From a virus: a stretch of 64,000 bases of DNA. Numbering within the stretch: the stretch's first letter is position 1; every line of letters begins with the position of its first letter. The translations under genes were made by a program, and so were the position numbers. Location: the IMG/VR virus record IMGVR_UViG_3300048080_000333; one strand, given 5' to 3'. Below the pieces are notes generated by a model that worked only from the letters and a program-made list of their open reading frames with translations, was not told the DNA's origin and made no database searches. Positions 3,398 through 48,837 of the stretch are shown here, piece after piece.

Positions 3398-4666
3398 ATG
3401 AGAATCGTATGGGTTAGTGACTGGTCGCATCGGCCGGTTCCTACTGGATTTGGTCGTGCCTCCCTCAAGATCCTTTCCTACCTGAAAGAGCGCGGCCACG
3501 AAGTTATTGAAATCGGCGTGGGCTACGAGGGCTATGGTGACGGCCTGCCGTGGCCGACGTATCCGACAACGGCGTATGGGGGCCGACTAGAGGGACAAGA
3601 CGTTGCGCCTCTCGTGGCCGCCGAGCACAGTGCTGATGCGTTGGTCCTGTTCATGGACTTCCCGTACGCTTCGTGGGCTGTACAGTACCACGACCGGCAA
3701 GGCAACGCGCTCGATGAGCGTGTCGTCGAGGCGTTGGACAAGCGGCGTTACGCCCTCTGTCTCTACACGCCTGTCGATGGTGCTTGTATAGACGGGAAGG
3801 TCCCGAGGGTGTGGGAGGGTATTCTTCGTCGCCATCCCTCGTTCGACGCCCTCTCCGCGCCGTCGAAGTTTGGCATCACCCTGCTCTCGAACGCTTCGGG
3901 TATGAAGGCCAGATGGCTCCCGCATGGAGTAGACACGGATCTGTTTCGCCCCGACCAGCCACAGGTCGAGTGTCGCCGGCGCCTCGGAATCCCAGAGGAG
4001 AATTTCACCTTGCTCTATGTCGGCGTCAACAAGCACCGTAAGCAATTGCCGGCGTTCTATGAAACGGCCGCGAAGGTCCAGGCACTTCTGCCCGATGTGC
4101 CGCTGACCGTGATGGTGAATGGTAACGACCGCGATACGGCCTACGATCTCCAGGGGCTTGTGGATGCGTATGGGCTCGAAGCGCGGGGTGCCGCATGCTA
4201 CCGGACCGAAAATCTCACGGACCAGGCTCTTGCCACGTTGTACGGCGCCGCTGATGTGCTCGTTCACACGTCGGGTGGCGAGGGGTTCGGGCTCCCCATT
4301 GTCGAGGCGATGGCGTGCCGCCTGCCCGCTCTCGTAACAGATTATTCGGCTATGGCCGAGTTGGTACCAGACAACGAGATGGGGTGGTGTCGGATTCCAG
4401 TCAAGGCCCTGATTCCCTACCCTGCGAACGGAATCGCGTGGGCGTGGCCCGACACTGACGCTGCTGCAGAACGCCTCGTTGCATTTTGGAAGGATCGGGG
4501 CCTGCGCGTAAGACTCCGGAAGGCCTGCTTCGAAAAGTCGAGGGCGTTCGCGTGGCCCCGGGTCCTACCGTGGTTCGAGAACTGGTTGGAGACGGCTATC
4601 CAGGCCAAGCGGTCAGCCGGGTTCAGGCTTGGTGTCGAGCGCATACGGCCGGATGGAGGAGCCTAA
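3398..4666 (+). CDS. Glycosyltransferase, GT-B fold, GT4 family
   Basis: N-terminal 'VPTGFGR'; 'LLYVGVNKHRKQ'; 'ADVLVHTSGGEGFGLPIVEAMACRLPALVTDYSAMAE' GT4 signature. Confidence 0.92.
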   Translation: MRIVWVSDWSHRPVPTGFGRASLKILSYLKERGHEVIEIGVGYEGYGDGLPWPTYPTTAYGGRLEGQDVAPLVAAEHSADALVLFMDFPYASWAVQYHDRQGNALDERVVEALDKRRYALCLYTPVDGACIDGKVPRVWEGILRRHPSFDALSAPSKFGITLLSNASGMKARWLPHGVDTDLFRPDQPQVECRRRLGIPEENFTLLYVGVNKHRKQLPAFYETAAKVQALLPDVPLTVMVNGNDRDTAYDLQGLVDAYGLEARGAACYRTENLTDQALATLYGAADVLVHTSGGEGFGLPIVEAMACRLPALVTDYSAMAELVPDNEMGWCRIPVKALIPYPANGIAWAWPDTDAAAERLVAFWKDRGLRVRLRKACFEKSRAFAWPRVLPWFENWLETAIQAKRSAGFRLGVERIRPDGGA

Positions 4667-5912
4667 CTTGGACGAGCCAATCGTATTTGGGCAGACCGAG
4701 GGTTTGGAGGGCTTGCGTGAAGAAGCCCGCTCCCGAGCCTATCCAGAGTGGTCAGACGACATGCTCAAGGTCTTGTATGTCGGCGCACACCTCTATCCAA
4801 CAGGGTATGGAGAGGCGTGTCGTTTGCACATGAAGGCCATGAAAGATGTTGGTGTCGGCGTGATGGCGCGGCTGAATCAACTGCCTCCGGTGGGTCTCAA
4901 GCATGAACTTGTCCGGACGGACAACGTTGTCAACGAGATGTTGGACCTGCGGTTTTGGCCGAAGGATCCGGCGCGCCGGAAGCCAGACGCTGGGGTGTGG
5001 CACGTCACGCCGGACACATTTGGACAATTCCCCGACATGAAAAACTTCGGCTATACTGTCTGGGAGACCGTAGGGTTGCCCTACGGATGGGCTGATGCGT
5101 GCAATCGTATGGACGGTCTCCTGACGTGCTCGGAGTTCTCGGCAAGTCTGTTTCGCGAAGGCGGCGTGACGGTGCCGATTCGCGTCTGTCCACACCCTAT
5201 GGATGTCGCGCGTTTCCGACCCGATGTTGACGGCTCTTCGTTCCGAGCGAGTCTCGGCGCTCCCAAGACGGTGTTTCTTGTCGTGTCCCAGTGGATGTTT
5301 CGAAAAGGCGTCGAGGACGCTGTCGTAGCGTACGCCAGCGAGTTCAAGGCCGACGAACCCGTTGCGCTCGTGTTGTTGACGTGGCGGTGGAGCCATGCCG
5401 TCAAAGAGCGCGTCGCCATTAGGGGCTACACGAAGTTTTTGCTGAATGGACTCAACCTCTCGGATACACCCCCAGTGTGGCATATCGGAGACAATTTGCC
5501 TCCGGTGGCGCTGCCCAACGTCTACGCGGCTTCTGACGTGCTCGTGTCGGCGTCCCGCGGCGAAGCGTTCGCGCTCCCCATTTTTGAGGCGGCGGCGTGC
5601 GGAAAGCCCTCCATCTCGACGGGTTGGGGAGGCATGTGGAGCCTCTTGTCCTCCGAGTCGGCCTATCCGGTGGCCTATGATATGGAGACGGTCCACGGAG
5701 CCGGCGCGAGGTGGAAGCACTACCATGCGGGTCAGAAGTGGGCTCGTCCCCGACTCGACGACCTGCGGCGCGCGATGCGTGAGGCCCACGAGGACGTGGA
5801 GGGCCGTACCACGAAGGGCCTACGGGCCTACGAAACCACGATAGAGCACCTGTCCCCCCAGGTCGCTGGTGCAGTGATGCGGGACGCCATTCTGGACCTC
5901 GTGAGGGCTTGA
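4653..5912 (+). CDS. Glycosyltransferase, GT-B fold, GT4 family
   Basis: 'PTGYGEACR'; 'RKG'; 'SDVLVSASRGEAFALPIFEAAACGKPSISTGWGG'. Start uncertain (4653 or 4762). Confidence 0.9.
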   Translation: MEEPNLDEPIVFGQTEGLEGLREEARSRAYPEWSDDMLKVLYVGAHLYPTGYGEACRLHMKAMKDVGVGVMARLNQLPPVGLKHELVRTDNVVNEMLDLRFWPKDPARRKPDAGVWHVTPDTFGQFPDMKNFGYTVWETVGLPYGWADACNRMDGLLTCSEFSASLFREGGVTVPIRVCPHPMDVARFRPDVDGSSFRASLGAPKTVFLVVSQWMFRKGVEDAVVAYASEFKADEPVALVLLTWRWSHAVKERVAIRGYTKFLLNGLNLSDTPPVWHIGDNLPPVALPNVYAASDVLVSASRGEAFALPIFEAAACGKPSISTGWGGMWSLLSSESAYPVAYDMETVHGAGARWKHYHAGQKWARPRLDDLRRAMREAHEDVEGRTTKGLRAYETTIEHLSPQVAGAVMRDAILDLVRA

Positions 5913-11852: not shown

Positions 11853-11868
11853 TCTAGGGGTGATTCCT

Positions 11869-12861
11869 ATGCAGACTGTTCTTGTCACTGGAGCCGGTGG
11901 GTTCATCGGCAAGATGCTCGCGAAAGCCCTGCAACTCGCGGGCCTTCGCGTTGTCGGTTTGTTCCGGGACATACCAGAGTATTTTCGCTCCCATACATCG
12001 GAGCAGTCCTCCCGGACCATCGCCGTGTTCGGCGACATCGTAGATAGCGACGGTCTTCTCCGTGTCCTCGTGAACTACGACGTGGACGCAGTCGTTCATC
12101 TTGCCGCCCATTCGGCCGTGAAGAAGTGTGAAGAGAACCCACGACCGGCCTATCTGACGAATGTCATGGGCGTTGTGTCTCTACTCGATGCTTGTCGGTT
12201 GCGGCACCGAGACCATCCCCTGTCGAAGATCGTCGTGGCTACCACGGATAAGGTCTATGGGGACGGCGACGTTCCCTATGTTGAATACCAGCCCCTTCGG
12301 GCCAAGGGACCCTACTCGACCTCGAAGGTCTGCGCGGACTACATCGCGAGGGACTACGGAGCGACCTACGGTCTGCCAGTCGTTGTTGCCCGCTCCTCGA
12401 ACGTCTACGGCCCCGGTGACACGGAGCCTACGCGGTTGATTCCTGGCAGCATCCAACGCTTGCTCCGCGGTGAGTCCGCCATCGTGTACGAATCCGCACT
12501 TGAGATGGAGCGGGAATTCGTTTACATCGCGGACGAGGTGAGTGCGTACCTCACGCTACTGTTTGAACCAACAAAACCCGACCACACCATTTTCAATATC
12601 GGAGGTTCTGGTCCTGTTCCTGTCGTGAGCGTTGTGAAGCGATTGGCTGCTTTGTGCAAGGGTGCCTACGAGATCCGACCGAGCAGCCACAGGGAGATTG
12701 GGCGTCAGTACGTGGACGCTTCTCGGCTCCACGCGCTCGGGTGGAGGCAGCATACGACCCTGGACGATGGGCTCCGGCTGACCGTCGAGTGGTTCAGATC
12801 GCAGCGGGCTAAGGCGACGCAAGGGATGGTTGCCATTCCTGGACCCGAGGCGGCCCGTTGA
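11869..12861 (+). CDS. NAD-dependent nucleotide-sugar epimerase/dehydratase (extended SDR, 4,6-dehydratase-like)
   Basis: 'VLVTGAGGFIG'; 'VHLAA'; 'TTDKVYG'; YxxxK 'YSTSK'; 'NVYGPGD'. Confidence 0.92.
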   Translation: MQTVLVTGAGGFIGKMLAKALQLAGLRVVGLFRDIPEYFRSHTSEQSSRTIAVFGDIVDSDGLLRVLVNYDVDAVVHLAAHSAVKKCEENPRPAYLTNVMGVVSLLDACRLRHRDHPLSKIVVATTDKVYGDGDVPYVEYQPLRAKGPYSTSKVCADYIARDYGATYGLPVVVARSSNVYGPGDTEPTRLIPGSIQRLLRGESAIVYESALEMEREFVYIADEVSAYLTLLFEPTKPDHTIFNIGGSGPVPVVSVVKRLAALCKGAYEIRPSSHREIGRQYVDASRLHALGWRQHTTLDDGLRLTVEWFRSQRAKATQGMVAIPGPEAAR

Positions 12862-32742: not shown

Positions 32743-32987
32743 TAAATCGCGATGTGCTACGAAAACGAATCACCCAATCCCTATTCGGGGTCATTTGGGA
32801 CGATCTCTTTCCGGCGGGACGGGATGTACGAAGTGGACTCGCGCATGGATTCGGGCGAGCAGCCGACATTCTACGGGGACACAAGATGTCGATAACAGCG
32901 ATTGAGCGTGAAGAAGCGGCGCTGAGACGGTCGGAGGAACTGAGGAAAGCGTGGCGGAAGCGGATGGCCGAGAGGCGAGGCGGATGA
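32739..32987 (+). CDS. Hypothetical protein
   Basis: ATGA overlaps at both ends; basic helical C-terminus. Confidence 0.55.
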   Translation: MINRDVLRKRITQSLFGVIWDDLFPAGRDVRSGLAHGFGRAADILRGHKMSITAIEREEAALRRSEELRKAWRKRMAERRGG

Positions 32988-33343
32988 AGACCTGGCTTCT
33001 GCCCCGGTTAGCGTCTCTTGCCGATGCCGTGCTCAAGTTGCTTGCTGACCTGACGGCGACCCGAAATATCATCGCACTCGGGACTCTGTATCTAATCGGC
33101 CGGGCATTTTGGCGGGGCGTCGAACTGGCTGAAACCTCGTCCGACGTGACCGGGCTCTTGAATGCGATGTCCAATATCACCCTGGCTGCCTTCGCCGTAT
33201 GGGTAGGGGGCAAAGCCATGGCAAAGGGGCAACAGACATGGGAATCTTTGACCGCATCCGCAGCATCGTTGCTCGCCCCACAGGACAGACCGCCGCAGGA
33301 GGAGCCGTGGCGAACGCAGGAGCCGAATGGCCCGCTCGGCTAA
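32984..33343 (+). CDS. Holin candidate
   Basis: Two hydrophobic segments, charged C-terminus, directly upstream of the endolysin. Confidence 0.55.
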   Translation: MKTWLLPRLASLADAVLKLLADLTATRNIIALGTLYLIGRAFWRGVELAETSSDVTGLLNAMSNITLAAFAVWVGGKAMAKGQQTWESLTASAASLLAPQDRPPQEEPWRTQEPNGPLG

Positions 33344-33927
33344 CGAAGCAGGATTTCGTTGACGCGGCGCTAGAGATTGGCGTCGAACCCGCCGCTCTGA
33401 GGGCCGTCGCAGACGTAGAATCCGGCGGTCGTGGTTTCCTGCCCGACGGCAGGCCGAAGATTCTGTTCGAGGGCCATGTATTCTGGCGCGAACTGCAGAA
33501 GCGTGGCATCGACCCGGTCCCGCTGGCCGTACAACACCCCACCATCGTTTACAAGACATGGACGAGGCAACACTACTTCGGCGGCGCCAAGGAGTATGTT
33601 CGCTACGAGACGGCCAAAGCGATCAATGCGGAGGCAGCCATCGCGTCTACGAGTTGGGGCGTTTTCCAGATGATGGGATTCAACTATAGTGCCTGTGGGT
33701 TCATCGGAATCACGGAGTTCTTGTGGGCGCACAAGGAAAGCGAGCGCGAGCATCTCCTTGCAGTCTCCAAATGGATGAGGCATAATGGGTTGGCAAAGCG
33801 ACTCCAGGCCAAGGACTGGGAAGGGTTCGCTCGCGGGTACAACGGACCTGGCTATAAGCAGAATCGGTACGATGAGAAACTGGCTACCGCGTATGCGAAG
33901 CGCGTAGCCGAAGGGTGGAACGCATGA
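33307..33927 (+). CDS. Endolysin, N-acetylmuramidase (DUF3380-type)
   Basis: 'EPAALRAV..VESGG.GF..DGRPKILFEGHVF', 'STSWG.FQ.MGFNY', 'WE.FARGYNGPGY..N.YD.KL'. Start GTG 33307 (RBS AGGAGG) or ATG 33238. Confidence 0.92.
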   Translation: MANAGAEWPARLTKQDFVDAALEIGVEPAALRAVADVESGGRGFLPDGRPKILFEGHVFWRELQKRGIDPVPLAVQHPTIVYKTWTRQHYFGGAKEYVRYETAKAINAEAAIASTSWGVFQMMGFNYSACGFIGITEFLWAHKESEREHLLAVSKWMRHNGLAKRLQAKDWEGFARGYNGPGYKQNRYDEKLATAYAKRVAEGWNA

Positions 33928-34832
33928 GCATACAACTTAAGGTGTGGCACGCTATCCTGGCCGTGCTAGTTATCGTGGGCATGTTTGGGGGGCAGCAGTG
34001 GTACTTCGCCTCCCGGGTCGACGGTCTCCAGCGCGAACTCCAGGAGCAGCAGGCCCGCAGCATCGCAGTTGTGTCAAAAGACATCGCTCGGCAGGTCGAG
34101 CGCCTCGGCGACCGCATAGAAATTCTTGGCCGTCTGGGCGGCCAAACCACGATTGAGCGCCGGCCCGGGACCCTGGTAATCACCACACAGCCCGGTCGGG
34201 ACGGCAAGGACGGGAAAAACGCCCTCCCAGCAGCCCCAGGGCGCGACGGGCGCCCGGGAACCGACGGAAAGCCAGGGGACCCTGGCAAAACGCCTCCTGG
34301 GCCTCCTGGAGGGGTAACGCCCCCTATCGTGGATCCGGCCCGCCGAGAAGAGGCTCGAAAAGCCGCCTCTCTGACCCTTCGGGTGACCCTGGACAAGGGG
34401 GTCCTTGACCCCCGCTGCTTCTCCCCTGCCCTACCCGTCGACACGATGGAGTTCTACGTCTTCGGCGACGGGCTCGGGAGCGTGAACCCCTGTATCAAGA
34501 AGTTGGAGGCCGAAGCGAAGGTCGCCAGCACGCCTGCGCCGGCGCGCAAGCGCCTGAAGATCGTGTTGGGTTCGTCGGTCTCGGCGCCGCTACTGTTCCA
34601 GTCGCTGGCTGGTCCCGGGATTGGGCTCGCCTACGAAATCCGTTCGGCCAAGGTCTTGTTCCTCGGGACGTTTAGTCTCGATGCCCTCGCGCTCTACCGC
34701 GGGCAGACCTTCCAGATTGGGCTCGGAATCTCGCGGGACATGACACAGGTTTGGAGTCTTGGCGTCGGTCTAACGACGCCGTTGACGACACTGAACCTAT
34801 CGCCTATTTTGTACACAACCATCAGATTCTAG
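33924..34832 (+). CDS. Spanin candidate: N-terminal TM, coiled coil, collagen-like GXY segment, C-terminal amphipathic beta-strands
   Basis: ATGA overlap with the endolysin; TM 'VWHAILAVLVIVGMFGG'; 'GRDGKDGK...GRDGRPGTDGKPGDPGK'; ends 'ILYTTIRF'. Confidence 0.55.
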   Translation: MSIQLKVWHAILAVLVIVGMFGGQQWYFASRVDGLQRELQEQQARSIAVVSKDIARQVERLGDRIEILGRLGGQTTIERRPGTLVITTQPGRDGKDGKNALPAAPGRDGRPGTDGKPGDPGKTPPGPPGGVTPPIVDPARREEARKAASLTLRVTLDKGVLDPRCFSPALPVDTMEFYVFGDGLGSVNPCIKKLEAEAKVASTPAPARKRLKIVLGSSVSAPLLFQSLAGPGIGLAYEIRSAKVLFLGTFSLDALALYRGQTFQIGLGISRDMTQVWSLGVGLTTPLTTLNLSPILYTTIRF

Positions 34833-34858
34833 CCGCCGACCTTTCGGAGGAACGCAAC

Positions 34859-35479
34859 TTGCCTAAGCACATTATTTACCACGACGGCCGTACCGAAGAA
34901 TTAGAGGTCGGTCGTCCTGAAGGCCCAGAGATTCAAGCCCGCGAACACGAGGTTCTCATCGCGATTGTCCGCGCCCTCCAGCCCGCGATAGCCGTGGAGA
35001 TTGGCTCGCTCTACGGTAACTTCCTCGCTCCCCTAGCGTGGAACATGCAGCAGTGGGACGGACGTGTCTACAGCCTTGACCTCCACACAGACTGGTCGAG
35101 ACCCTACCTCGAAGCGTGGGGGCTCCTCGACCGTATTACGTTTATCGCAGGTGACAGCAAGGAAACCGTCGGACAACTTCCCAACGGCATTGGCTTCGCG
35201 TTCATCGACGGGAACCACGCCTACGAGTATGCCAAAAGCGACTACGAAGGGCTGTGGCCCAAGATGGTCGAGGGCGGTATCATCGCCTTCCACGATGTCT
35301 TCCCATCTGTAGACGCCGATGACTGGCTGAAGTTCGGTCCCTCACCAGTACGACAGTATATCCGCGACGCCCATTCCGGTGCCCTTCACATTCCTTGGGG
35401 TCAGGGCGTCAGCATCGTCCAGAAACCAGTCGCCTCTTCACTGCTCGATCCGAACTCATCTGGGAGGGCCATGGTATGA
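34859..35479 (+). CDS. Class I SAM-dependent methyltransferase (type 24-like)
   Basis: RBS GGAGG, TTG start; 'VEIGSLYG', 'YSLD', 'GDSKE', 'FAFIDGNHAYE...SDY......GG.IAFHD'. Confidence 0.88.
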   Translation: MPKHIIYHDGRTEELEVGRPEGPEIQAREHEVLIAIVRALQPAIAVEIGSLYGNFLAPLAWNMQQWDGRVYSLDLHTDWSRPYLEAWGLLDRITFIAGDSKETVGQLPNGIGFAFIDGNHAYEYAKSDYEGLWPKMVEGGIIAFHDVFPSVDADDWLKFGPSPVRQYIRDAHSGALHIPWGQGVSIVQKPVASSLLDPNSSGRAMV

Positions 35480-36066
35480 GCCACAAAGACGCTACTGACG
35501 ATGCAAAGTGGAACGAGCACGTTGCGTATCAGATGGCCCAAGAAGCGTATCTGGTTGATAAAAACGACCGGATGTGGCAGGCTCTGATGTCGGAACCGTG
35601 GTTCTCACTGCTTGACTTCGGCTGTGGATCCGGTCTGTGGTCGCGCTACCTCTACACAGAAGGAGCGCGATACGTCGGAGTGGACCGAAATCCGAACATG
35701 ATCGAGGCTGCGCGGACGCGGTGGGCATCCGAGCCCTCCAGGGCGTTTGTGCTCTGCGACGTACTTGCGGGGGAGCCACTGCCGTTTCCGAACGGTGACT
35801 TCGACGTTGCCGTGACTATCGCGGTGCTTCAACACAATGATTTGGACGAAAAGCCCAAGGTTCTCGCCGAGATTCGGCGGGTACTGCGACGCTACGGACG
35901 TTTGCTCATGTATGAAACGACCTACGGTCCCTTCAACCCCGGTCATACGGCTGAGGACAGCGATGACCACTGTCATTCTCAAGCAGGATGGCGAACCGTT
36001 GTCGAGCCACATGGTTTCGTATGCGTACGTCAGGAGCGTGATTTCCACGTTTTCCAAGCAATATGA
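35476..36066 (+). CDS. Class I SAM-dependent methyltransferase
   Basis: 'LLDFGCGSG', 'YVGVD', 'FDVAVT..VLQH', 'IRRVLRRYG'. Confidence 0.9.
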   Translation: MSHKDATDDAKWNEHVAYQMAQEAYLVDKNDRMWQALMSEPWFSLLDFGCGSGLWSRYLYTEGARYVGVDRNPNMIEAARTRWASEPSRAFVLCDVLAGEPLPFPNGDFDVAVTIAVLQHNDLDEKPKVLAEIRRVLRRYGRLLMYETTYGPFNPGHTAEDSDDHCHSQAGWRTVVEPHGFVCVRQERDFHVFQAI

Positions 36067-47901: not shown

Positions 47902-48291
47902 ATGGCGTACAATCTTGTGGTGTTAGAGGGGCGACTGACGAAAGACCCTGAACTGCGCTACATCCCGAGTGGACAGCCCGTGGCGTCGTTTACGCTTGCC
48001 GTGGACCGTTCGTACGTGCAGGAGGGTAAGGAGCGGGAGACGGATTTCGTCGATATCATAGCCTGGAGGAAGTTGGCGGAGACGGTCTCCCAGCATCTTC
48101 AGAAGGGTTCGTATGTTCTGGTCCAGGGCCGTCTTCAGATACGGGCCTACGAAACCCAGGATGGGCAGAAGCGAAAGGTCACCGAGATCGTCGCAACCGA
48201 GATCCGGTTCCTTGGCCCGAAGCCGAAGGGTGCCACCGGCGAATCTGCTGCGCCCTCGACGCACGGGATTAATGAGGACGTTCCGTTCTAA
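47902..48291 (+). CDS. ssb: Single-stranded DNA-binding protein
   Basis: 'NLVVLEGRLTKDPELRY...VASFTLAVDR', 'WRKLAE....L.KGS.V.VQGRLQ'; acidic 'EDVPF' tail. Confidence 0.96.
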   Translation: MAYNLVVLEGRLTKDPELRYIPSGQPVASFTLAVDRSYVQEGKERETDFVDIIAWRKLAETVSQHLQKGSYVLVQGRLQIRAYETQDGQKRKVTEIVATEIRFLGPKPKGATGESAAPSTHGINEDVPF

Positions 48292-48294
48292 GGC

Positions 48295-48324
48295 TTGACA
48301 ATGGGGGCGCAGATGCTCTATCAT
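48295..48324 (+). promoter_or_regulatory. sigma70-type promoter TTGACA-18-TATCAT, probably leaderless
   Basis: ATG 48331 lies 6 nt after the -10; no Shine-Dalgarno in between. Confidence 0.6.
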
Positions 48325-48330
48325 ACGTCT

Positions 48331-48837
48331 ATGCGATGCACATTCGGGCTTCTGTTAATCGCTGCTCTGGCCGCCGCATGCGCCCCCACCGATATTTCCC
48401 AGGAGGCCGCGTATACCCTTCGGGGTCCTTACATCCCACCCAACGCCTACTGGCCCCGGGGACGGCAGATAGAGGTTACGGCGACCATGTACAATTGTGT
48501 AGCCGCCCAGACCGACAGCACCCCCTGGATCACAGCGTCCGGAATGCCGTGTGGACACAATACTGTCGTCATCACACCTGAAGGGCGCGTTGTGTCTGCG
48601 GGTCCGGCCCAGTTCCCTCCCGAGTACAGCGTCCGAGTGGGCGTTCTTGGGGTGAGTAGGGACCTGCTGAAAGAGTTGCCGTTTGGGACACAGGTCGTCG
48701 TGTATGGACGGACCTACGTCGTTGGTGACACGATGGCCGCCCGGTGGCGACGCCGCATAGACATTCCGCATCCGACCTACAGGGGTGCGATGCTCCATGG
48801 TGTCAGGAGAAAAGTCATTATGGAGGTCCATAGATGA
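48331..48837 (+). CDS. 3D-domain (MltA/RlpA-like) lipoprotein
   Basis: Lipobox 'LLLIAALAAAC'; 'VTATMY', 'ITASG', 'VSRDLL..LPFGT.V', 'VVGDTM......IDI'. Confidence 0.8.
   Translation: MRCTFGLLLIAALAAACAPTDISQEAAYTLRGPYIPPNAYWPRGRQIEVTATMYNCVAAQTDSTPWITASGMPCGHNTVVITPEGRVVSAGPAQFPPEYSVRVGVLGVSRDLLKELPFGTQVVVYGRTYVVGDTMAARWRRRIDIPHPTYRGAMLHGVRRKVIMEVHR

Follow-up and report, generated by a model that had tools for sequence, protein, structure and literature searches.

A conserved lysis-cassette gene family that may encode single-chain functional analogues of phage spanins

We analyzed a stretch of viral DNA of 64,000 nucleotides (nt) from the IMG/VR record IMGVR_UViG_3300048080_000333, hereafter the window, and describe here a gene of its lysis region and the protein family to which the product, P0001, belongs. 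The window is a phage contig that contains tail, DNA polymerase, primase, and terminase-like genes; its DNA possibly originated from a sediment metagenome, and the phage is far from cultured phages. This metagenome was the one DNA sequencing data set listed as containing it, and no RNA data set was listed. The P0001 gene lies directly behind an endolysin gene, and its start codon overlaps the upstream stop codon (Table 1). A purine-rich stretch that resembles a Shine–Dalgarno (SD) sequence is located 5–14 nt 5′ of the ATG, and these two features together imply translational coupling of P0001 to the endolysin. From its N-terminus, the protein consists of a hydrophobic helix, a coiled coil, a short beta hairpin, a spacer rich in Gly and Pro, an alpha/beta domain with two Cys residues, a linker, and a C-terminal beta domain. 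A preliminary description of this locus had proposed a single-chain spanin of inverted architecture, and every feature listed there for the open reading frame (ORF) is present in P0001.

An exhaustive phmmer search of 1.84 billion cluster representatives recovered a rare family of about 17 proteins, 269–326 amino acids (aa) long, that share this layout. Their best E-values to P0001 were 4e-51, 2e-42, and 3e-27, and since homologues reach down to the first of these, we regard the gene as real. Two further relatives were found by a pattern scan of genome contigs, on contigs of metagenome-assembled genomes (MAGs) assigned to Sysuimicrobiota and Gemmatimonadales. The same type of scan gave one extra locus among metagenome contigs, a near-duplicate of L001, and no further locus among viral contigs. 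Searches with tblastn of P0001 and the short relative P0019 against a phage collection gave no match, word-index protein searches with P0001 returned only the query itself or matches driven by collagen, and no family in Pfam, PHROGs, or NCBIfam describes the protein. The family proteins have only 19–43% identity with one another. In the alignment, each of the 17 members shows the N-terminal hydrophobic helix, the Gly/Pro-rich spacer, and the two invariant Cys residues, and the middle domain has a conserved motif of approximately DPGSL.NC ... STAPCVWR. The inverted layout, namely, an N-terminal putative inner-membrane helix, an extended spacer, a presumably extracytoplasmic Cys pair, and an aromatic-ended C-terminal beta domain, is conserved family-wide.

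A set of shorter proteins (P0015, P0019, P0032, P0035, P0041, P0047, and P0051; 170–220 aa) also has an N-terminal helix and a coiled coil, followed by long Gly-X-Y runs and a small C-terminal module with a Cys pair (CPxGY...C) but no beta domain. Proteins of the P0015/P0019 type are similar to P0001 at E-values of 1e-6 to 5e-4. We did not count P0015, P0019, and other short proteins with transmembrane (TM), coiled-coil, and collagen segments as family members, as the similarity is mostly through the collagen part.

The family gene is located inside a lysis cassette in all 10 informative distinct loci, i.e., the window and nine more, and about ten loci show a 4-nt overlap between its start codon and the stop of the preceding gene. 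The neighboring hydrolases belong to five Pfam families (PF11860, PF01510, PF01520, PF01832, and, weakly, PF01464) or to phrog_30036. In the window, the upstream enzyme is a PF11860 muramidase. Amidase_2 (PF01510) is encoded upstream in L001/L019 and L009, and as a fragment in L004. An Amidase_3 gene (PF01520) is followed by a gene for a 157-aa protein and then the family gene in L015/L016, and an SLT-like protein (PF01464, weak match) is found in L010-12. The PF05105 holin was seen in L006, L008, and L017. It precedes a glucosaminidase endolysin (PF01832) and the family gene in L008, precedes a phrog_30036 protein and the family gene in L006, and is directly upstream of the family gene in L017/L018, where Amidase_2 (PF01510) is encoded on the opposite strand just downstream. 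The order in L013 is a small membrane protein, a phrog_30036 protein, and the family gene. The P0001 family gene is a conserved lysis-cassette member. The partner enzyme varies from family to family while this gene stays, as one would expect if its product acted on the envelope and not on one enzyme. The preliminary description had suggested a search for homologues next to endolysins based on hidden Markov models; run here as phmmer followed by inspection of the loci, such a search found homologues in lysis cassettes.

Several other genes in these cassettes deserve mention. The phrog_30036 proteins in the endolysin slot (L006:4404-5132, E-value 4e-37; L013:4607-5572, E-value 1e-45) have no Pfam match and are annotated as "unknown function"; they may represent an unannotated endolysin family. 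In L007, the family member is preceded, with a 4-nt overlap, by a gene for a 68-aa protein (P0056; L007:87-293) that has one strongly hydrophobic helix and no family match; by these properties, it seems closer to a holin than to an endolysin. Genes for a Trypsin_2 serine protease and/or a metallophosphoesterase recur 3′ of the family gene in several related phages (L006:6008-7620, L010:7042-8007, and L001:7222-8157).

For the window itself, P0001 had been described as following directly after holin and endolysin. The endolysin was verified (PF11860, E-value 7e-66); it has no signal or TM segment, and its true start may be 3′ of 33199. In contrast, the "holin" is only a weak positional candidate. 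Its ORF opens at GTG 32951, with an internal ATG at 32984, and had no match in Pfam, PHROGs, or NCBIfam. We found relatives of the endolysin in 801 phage records, whose ten most frequent organism names are all those of Gram-negative genera. Furthermore, both MAGs that carry relatives of P0001 encode Omp85/BamA. Based on these names and the presence of Omp85/BamA, the hosts of the family are plausibly diderm. Other clues to the host were less informative. A tRNA search of the window found none. The DNA polymerase was rejected as a host clue, as its identity to actinophage polymerases is only about 24% and no genomic relative was found. The idea that the hosts lack the Lol pathway was also dropped; LolA is present in one MAG and had no match in the other MAG, which is incomplete.

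The cassettes were also searched for spanin genes. When the window and 18 loci were scanned in six frames, no lipobox ORF was found on the same strand inside, overlapping, or after the family gene, in agreement with the earlier statement that no lipobox o-spanin ORF overlaps P0001 or lies downstream of it. The only clear lipoprotein of the window is encoded directly after the gene for the single-stranded DNA-binding protein (SSB) in the replication module (Table 1). It has 151 mature residues, its C-terminal part matches phrog_24247 (unknown function), and there is no match in Pfam or NCBIfam. We rejected this lipoprotein as an o-spanin, given the distance of 14 kb, the position behind the SSB gene, the phrog_24247 domain, and the absence of an i-spanin beside it.

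About 13% of the phages of Gram-negative hosts have no recognizable spanin (Kongari et al., 2018; PMC6139136), and the breach of the outer membrane by such phages is only partly understood. The criteria used in that survey ignored other anchors, and its authors noted that "an OMP [outer-membrane protein] could act as an o-spanin" (Kongari et al., 2018; PMC6139136). Our literature search found no paper on a beta-barrel or collagen-containing spanin.

Based on the lysis-cassette membership at 10 loci, the absence of canonical spanin genes, and the conserved layout, we propose that P0001 performs the third (outer-membrane) step of the lysis cassette as a functional analogue of spanins that consists of one chain and needs no lipoprotein, and put the probability of this reading at roughly 0.5. 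The inverted-architecture spanin of the preliminary description is retained in this proposal, except that the collagen stalk has become an extended spacer (see below). The tight coupling to the endolysin is, in itself, a sign of co-expression and not of function, and lysis cassettes do carry regulators such as antiholins and releasins. Such an accessory role, i.e., regulation of the holin or endolysin, tethering or activation of the endolysin at the wall, or timing, all without disruption of the outer membrane, appears quite unlikely. A conserved span of about 185 aa and an aromatic-ended amphipathic beta domain are unexpected for a regulator, these cassettes contain no other candidate for outer-membrane disruption, and partner enzymes from at least five unrelated families make specific enzyme binding unlikely.

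The N-terminal half of P0001 was found to be much as first described, with one putative TM helix (residues 7–30), a coiled coil (within the helices at residues 3–60 and 65–71 of the AlphaFold2 [AF2] model), and two Cys residues (C165 and C190) that are invariant. A rule-based check for AXA-like signal-peptidase sites found none in P0001 and none conserved family-wide; some relatives have AXA-like sites. Because there is no conserved cleavage site and the AF2 helix runs into the coiled coil, we read the N-terminal helix as uncleaved, and it probably serves as an inner-membrane signal-anchor, as in i-spanins. No family member has a Cys before residue 143, and the invariance of the Cys pair suggests that the chain beyond the helix is extracytoplasmic.

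The spacer of P0001 contains nine perfect Gly-X-Y triplets in total, at residues 91–99 and 106–123, then PPGPPG. The collagen-like stalk of the preliminary description is therefore present as a sequence feature, but it is short and interrupted, and with 18.1 bits it falls under the 27.2 cut-off of the Pfam Collagen family (PF01391). The number of triplets in the relatives ranges from 0 to 14, and in P0026 the spacer is only Pro-rich and free of Gly-X-Y. We thus prefer to regard this segment as a spacer, extended and of conserved length, in which a collagen triple helix is possible and not required. The distance from the end of the helix to the start of the C-terminal domain is 185 ± 11 aa (range 171–208) across the family. 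This length is fixed despite the variable composition of the spacer, and the segment thus acts much as a ruler would. Taking standard values for the rise per residue, we estimate that the part of P0001 in the periplasm would extend over roughly 20–27 nm, about the width of the periplasm.

The same collagen-type region gave the matches that may point to a tail fibre. Residues 6–127 are similar to phrog_18350, annotated as "tail fiber protein" (E-value 8e-6), other collagen-type tail PHROGs match weakly, and the gene is located downstream of the tail genes. However, the phrog_18350 similarity is confined to the compositionally biased helix and collagen part. Moreover, all 17 members have a membrane helix, the Cys pair is invariant, the C-terminal strand is OMP-like, and the gene always follows an endolysin or holin gene and not fibre genes. 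It is thus extremely unlikely that P0001 is a virion component, such as a collagen-like tail fibre, whose gene closes the tail module.

The preliminary description had noted about 95 C-terminal residues of alternating strands ending in Phe, and the five motifs quoted for them as well as the terminal Phe were all found (about 93 aa). In the AF2 model, these residues form a six-stranded antiparallel meander barrel (strands at residues 211–218, 231–244, 248–259, 262–272, 277–286, and 293–301). The 19-aa hydropathy of the domain stays at or below about 1.0; there is no C-terminal TM helix. Alternation along the strands is above that of shuffled sequences on the Wimley–White scale (z = 2.6 for P0001 and 2.0–3.8 in eight relatives) and is weaker on the Kyte–Doolittle scale (z = 1.0 for P0001). 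The hydrophobic face of the strands has 75% large hydrophobic or aromatic residues and 3% charged residues, with no invariant column and an entropy of 1.90. The other face has 57% G/A/S/T and 23% charged residues, an entropy of 1.23, and all six invariant residues (D253, G266, G268, S270, G280, and R301). At the strand ends, R/K and W/Y/F replace each other among members, and only 14% of the residues in the domain are charged. A hydrophobic face that varies, paired with a small/polar face that is conserved, is what outer-membrane barrels show; soluble barrels, in which the hydrophobic core is the conserved part, show the opposite. The C-terminal residue is F or W in 15 of the 17 members, and 14 of the 17 end in [RK][FW]. 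A basic penultimate residue before the C-terminal aromatic is also typical of neisserial porins.

Structure comparisons were less decisive. Among ESM Atlas entries, the neighbors of the domain are mostly OMP barrels (TM-scores of 0.37–0.47), and those in BFVD are phage OMPs (E-values of 2e-3 or weaker); both sets are below the threshold. Foldseek searches of the Protein Data Bank (PDB) with both models found nothing at an E-value of 0.001 or better.

Several observations weigh against an outer-membrane barrel or against spanin function. To our knowledge, no natural monomeric outer-membrane barrel has six strands, and the smallest one known has eight. The length of the C-terminal domain varies from about 41 to 110 aa across the family, which is odd for one barrel type, and several members have a polar residue at position −3, counted from the C-terminus. 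The outward-pointing face of the strands is assigned here from conservation only. A profile of the domain had no match among PDB sequences, even at an E-value of 10. Matches to OMP families of Pfam are at noise level and come from one relative only (YadA_anchor, E-value 0.032; OMP_b-brl, E-value 0.065). No spanin family of Pfam, PHROGs, or NCBIfam matched P0001, which has no homology to known spanins. In addition, Amidase_3, glucosaminidase, and holin_4_1 are common in phages of Gram-positive bacteria, and the neighbors of the family genes include them. The solved structure that best matches the model of the domain is 9xzt, a soluble de novo six-strand barrel (Z of 10.2–10.3, root-mean-square deviation of 2.1–2.2, and 81–83 residues aligned), whose authors described the fold as rarely if ever seen in nature (PMC12478100). 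OmpA, OprF, OmpW, PagL, and KdgM have Z values of only about 5, level with several soluble barrels (VIA).

With regard to domain length, the C-terminal domains of P0036, P0011, and P0034 are short (about 41–64 aa), and those of P0007, P0008, and L013 are long (102–110 aa), with an inserted hairpin. This extra hairpin gives one subgroup about eight strands, and other members are too short for closing a barrel alone. The latter may be a hint of a shared oligomeric barrel or of strand addition to a host protein. A prediction with three copies of residues 130–302 scored 0.20 (mark 0.42), which is neither support for a trimer nor evidence against it. A second Cys pair is located inside the C-terminal domain of P0008, P0010, P0026, P0034, and L013.

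These results leave room for a lysis protein like TonB or TolA, with the same anchor and stalk and a soluble C-terminal barrel that would bind a host OMP, lipoprotein, lipopolysaccharide, or peptidoglycan, i.e., an i-spanin that uses a host partner. The evidence from synteny and architecture fits this possibility equally. The best fold match (Z of about 10) is soluble, the soluble barrels Cap15, LpqH, and NHBA score as high as the OMPs, six strands are below the known OMP minimum, and domains of about 41–64 aa cannot close a barrel alone. TonB, TolA, and VirB10 resemble P0001 in that they start with a membrane helix and continue with a spacer that is Pro-rich or extended; their C-terminal domains act at the outer membrane, as is proposed for that of P0001, and VirB10 is a precedent for one chain that touches both membranes. 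These proteins differ from P0001 in that they act in energy transduction or secretion of the host or of conjugation, their C-terminal domains are not aromatic-ended meander barrels, and none is a lysis gene product. Nevertheless, we consider a soluble TonB/TolA-like domain unlikely, since a G/A/S/T-rich conserved face and a variable hydrophobic face with R/K-to-W/Y/F swaps are the reverse of a soluble core, the domain has few charged residues, and a soluble domain would have no evident use for the conserved terminal [RK]-[FW].

Another possibility is a phage-encoded protein of the outer membrane or cell surface. The product may be a small relative in kind of the trimeric autotransporters, or the gene a conversion gene of the Lom/Bor type, with a cleaved signal and a stalk that is periplasmic or surface-exposed. 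A trimer-prone stalk followed by a C-terminal beta anchor ending in F/W is found in trimeric autotransporters, the YadA_anchor match of one relative and the AXA-like sites of some relatives point in this direction, and conversion genes are often located at the end of late operons. However, the YadA_anchor (PF03895) alignment covers only 17 residues, in P0012, and there is none in P0001. The 4-nt overlaps with endolysin stops in about ten loci argue against an autonomous moron, P0001 has no cleavage site and the family no conserved one, the AF2 helix runs straight into the coiled coil, and there are six strands per chain and not four. We thus regard a surface or conversion protein as very unlikely.

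Our proposal of a single-chain spanin analogue can be given a more specific form, in which one chain is integrated in both membranes, with the helix inside and a BAM-inserted six-strand or shared trimeric barrel outside (BAM, beta-barrel assembly machinery), and replaces lipoprotein-dependent spanins. We hold this form tentatively and rate it somewhat short of even odds. The topology, BAM insertion, oligomeric state, and membrane-disruption step that we infer for P0001 would be as follows. The N-terminal helix would stay in the inner membrane as a signal-anchor, and the periplasm would be crossed by about 185 residues that comprise the coiled coil, the Gly/Pro spacer, and a disulphide-stabilised domain. 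The C-terminal beta domain would be put into the outer membrane by BAM via its terminal [R/K]-[F/W] strand, where it could form a very small barrel by itself or serve as one protomer of an oligomeric one. P0001 would be made together with the endolysin and kept extended by the peptidoglycan mesh. Once the wall has been removed by the endolysin, P0001 could move, cluster, and pull or fuse both membranes, such that the outer membrane would break.

Comparisons with known systems show where such a protein would stand. The u-spanin gp11 of phage T1 is likewise one lysis-cassette chain proposed to be in both membranes, and is beta-rich near the outer membrane (PMC6139136). Unlike P0001, gp11 is an N-terminal lipoprotein with a C-terminal TM helix; the polarity of P0001 is inverted, it has no lipobox, and there is no sequence similarity between the two. 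Moreover, all 58 catalogued u-spanins are without periplasmic Cys residues, whereas the P0001 family has two that are invariant. Compared with the two-component spanins (lambda Rz/Rz1 and T4 PseT.3/PseT.2), the N-terminal half of P0001 is i-spanin-like in its putative type II anchor, coiled coil, and periplasmic Cys, and the gene is also directly after the endolysin. It differs in that no family locus has an o-spanin gene embedded, overlapping, or adjacent, and the P0001 chain continues into its own candidate outer-membrane anchor.

Among outer-membrane proteins, the small BAM barrels of the OmpA/OmpX/PagL type resemble the P0001 domain, as modeled, in the even count of their long, amphipathic, antiparallel strands, in short alternate turns, and in aromatic residues where strands end. 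Of the two strand faces, the hydrophobic one varies and the small/polar one is conserved in both cases, and a C-terminal F/W follows a basic residue. These barrels have at least eight strands, whereas P0001 has six, with about eight in one subgroup and fewer in other members; P0001 also has no cleavable signal peptide, and the structural similarity is low (Z of about 5 and TM-scores below 0.5). The YadA anchors and TolC-type shared barrels resemble P0001 in having a trimer-prone stalk and then a short C-terminal beta anchor that ends in an aromatic residue, and sharing would explain the C-terminal domains that are too short to close alone. They differ in having four strands per chain and a passenger that is exported outward, whereas the N-terminus of P0001 is proposed to be in the inner membrane.

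Other genes of the window include two for SAM (S-adenosylmethionine)-dependent methyltransferases (Methyltransf_24 and Methyltransf_11) 3′ of the lysis gene. The first of these ORFs, as listed, shares about 80 nt with the 3′ end of the lysis gene; given this overlap, its true start is probably further downstream. Elsewhere, two glycosyltransferase genes (phrog_2170) and a nucleotide-sugar epimerase gene (phrog_540) suggest a sugar-modification module.

Table 1. Coordinates of the P0001 gene, the segments of its product, and other features of the window. pLDDT, predicted local distance difference test.
Feature	Position	Strand	Details
P0001 lysis gene	33924-34832	+	302 aa plus stop; open in translation table 11
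SD-like sequence and start/stop overlap	33910..33927	+	gaagggtgga (33910-33919) and ATGA (33924-33927); sequence reading
N-terminal hydrophobic helix, residues 7-30	33942..34013	+	Uncharged; hydropathy 1.8-2.2
Heptad coiled-coil helix, residues ~31-71	34014..34136	+	AF2 helices 3-60 and 65-71; 3-4 hydrophobic spacing
Short beta hairpin before spacer, residues 73-90	34140..34193	+	AF2 strands 73-80 and 83-90
Collagen-like/Pro-rich spacer, residues 91-135	34194..34328	+	45 aa; 51% Gly+Pro; 9 Gly-X-Y triplets; pLDDT <50
Conserved alpha/beta domain, residues 136-199	34329..34520	+	Invariant Cys165 and Cys190 (invariant alignment columns); pLDDT 86-93
Pro/Ala/basic linker, residues 200-209	34521..34550	+	Sequence; low pLDDT
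Six-strand amphipathic beta domain, residues 210-302	34551..34829	+	Ends R-F; candidate outer-membrane barrel; AF2 pLDDT >90
Endolysin, N-acetylmuramidase	33199..33927	+	PF11860, E-value 7.1e-66; phrog_1224, E-value 2.5e-76
Weak holin candidate	32984..33343	+	Two short hydrophobic segments; position only
Methyltransferase genes (two)	34751-36066	+	Methyltransf_24, Methyltransf_11
Glycosyltransferase genes (two) and nucleotide-sugar epimerase gene	3398-5912 and 11860-12861	+	phrog_2170, phrog_540
SSB gene	47902-48291
Only clear lipoprotein gene	48313-48837	+	Signal ends in LAAAC; directly after SSB gene, replication module

If our proposal is true, the P0001 family would represent a third spanin architecture, the case of an OMP as o-spanin that was raised in 2018 as a possibility only (PMC6139136), and would provide a new annotation signature for the third lysis step. 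It would explain some of the "spanin-less" cassettes of uncultured phages. P0001 would also be a natural protein tethered in both membranes, with a beta anchor no larger than the smallest outer-membrane barrels known, and the Lol lipoprotein route would not be the sole way for a phage to place an outer-membrane anchor.

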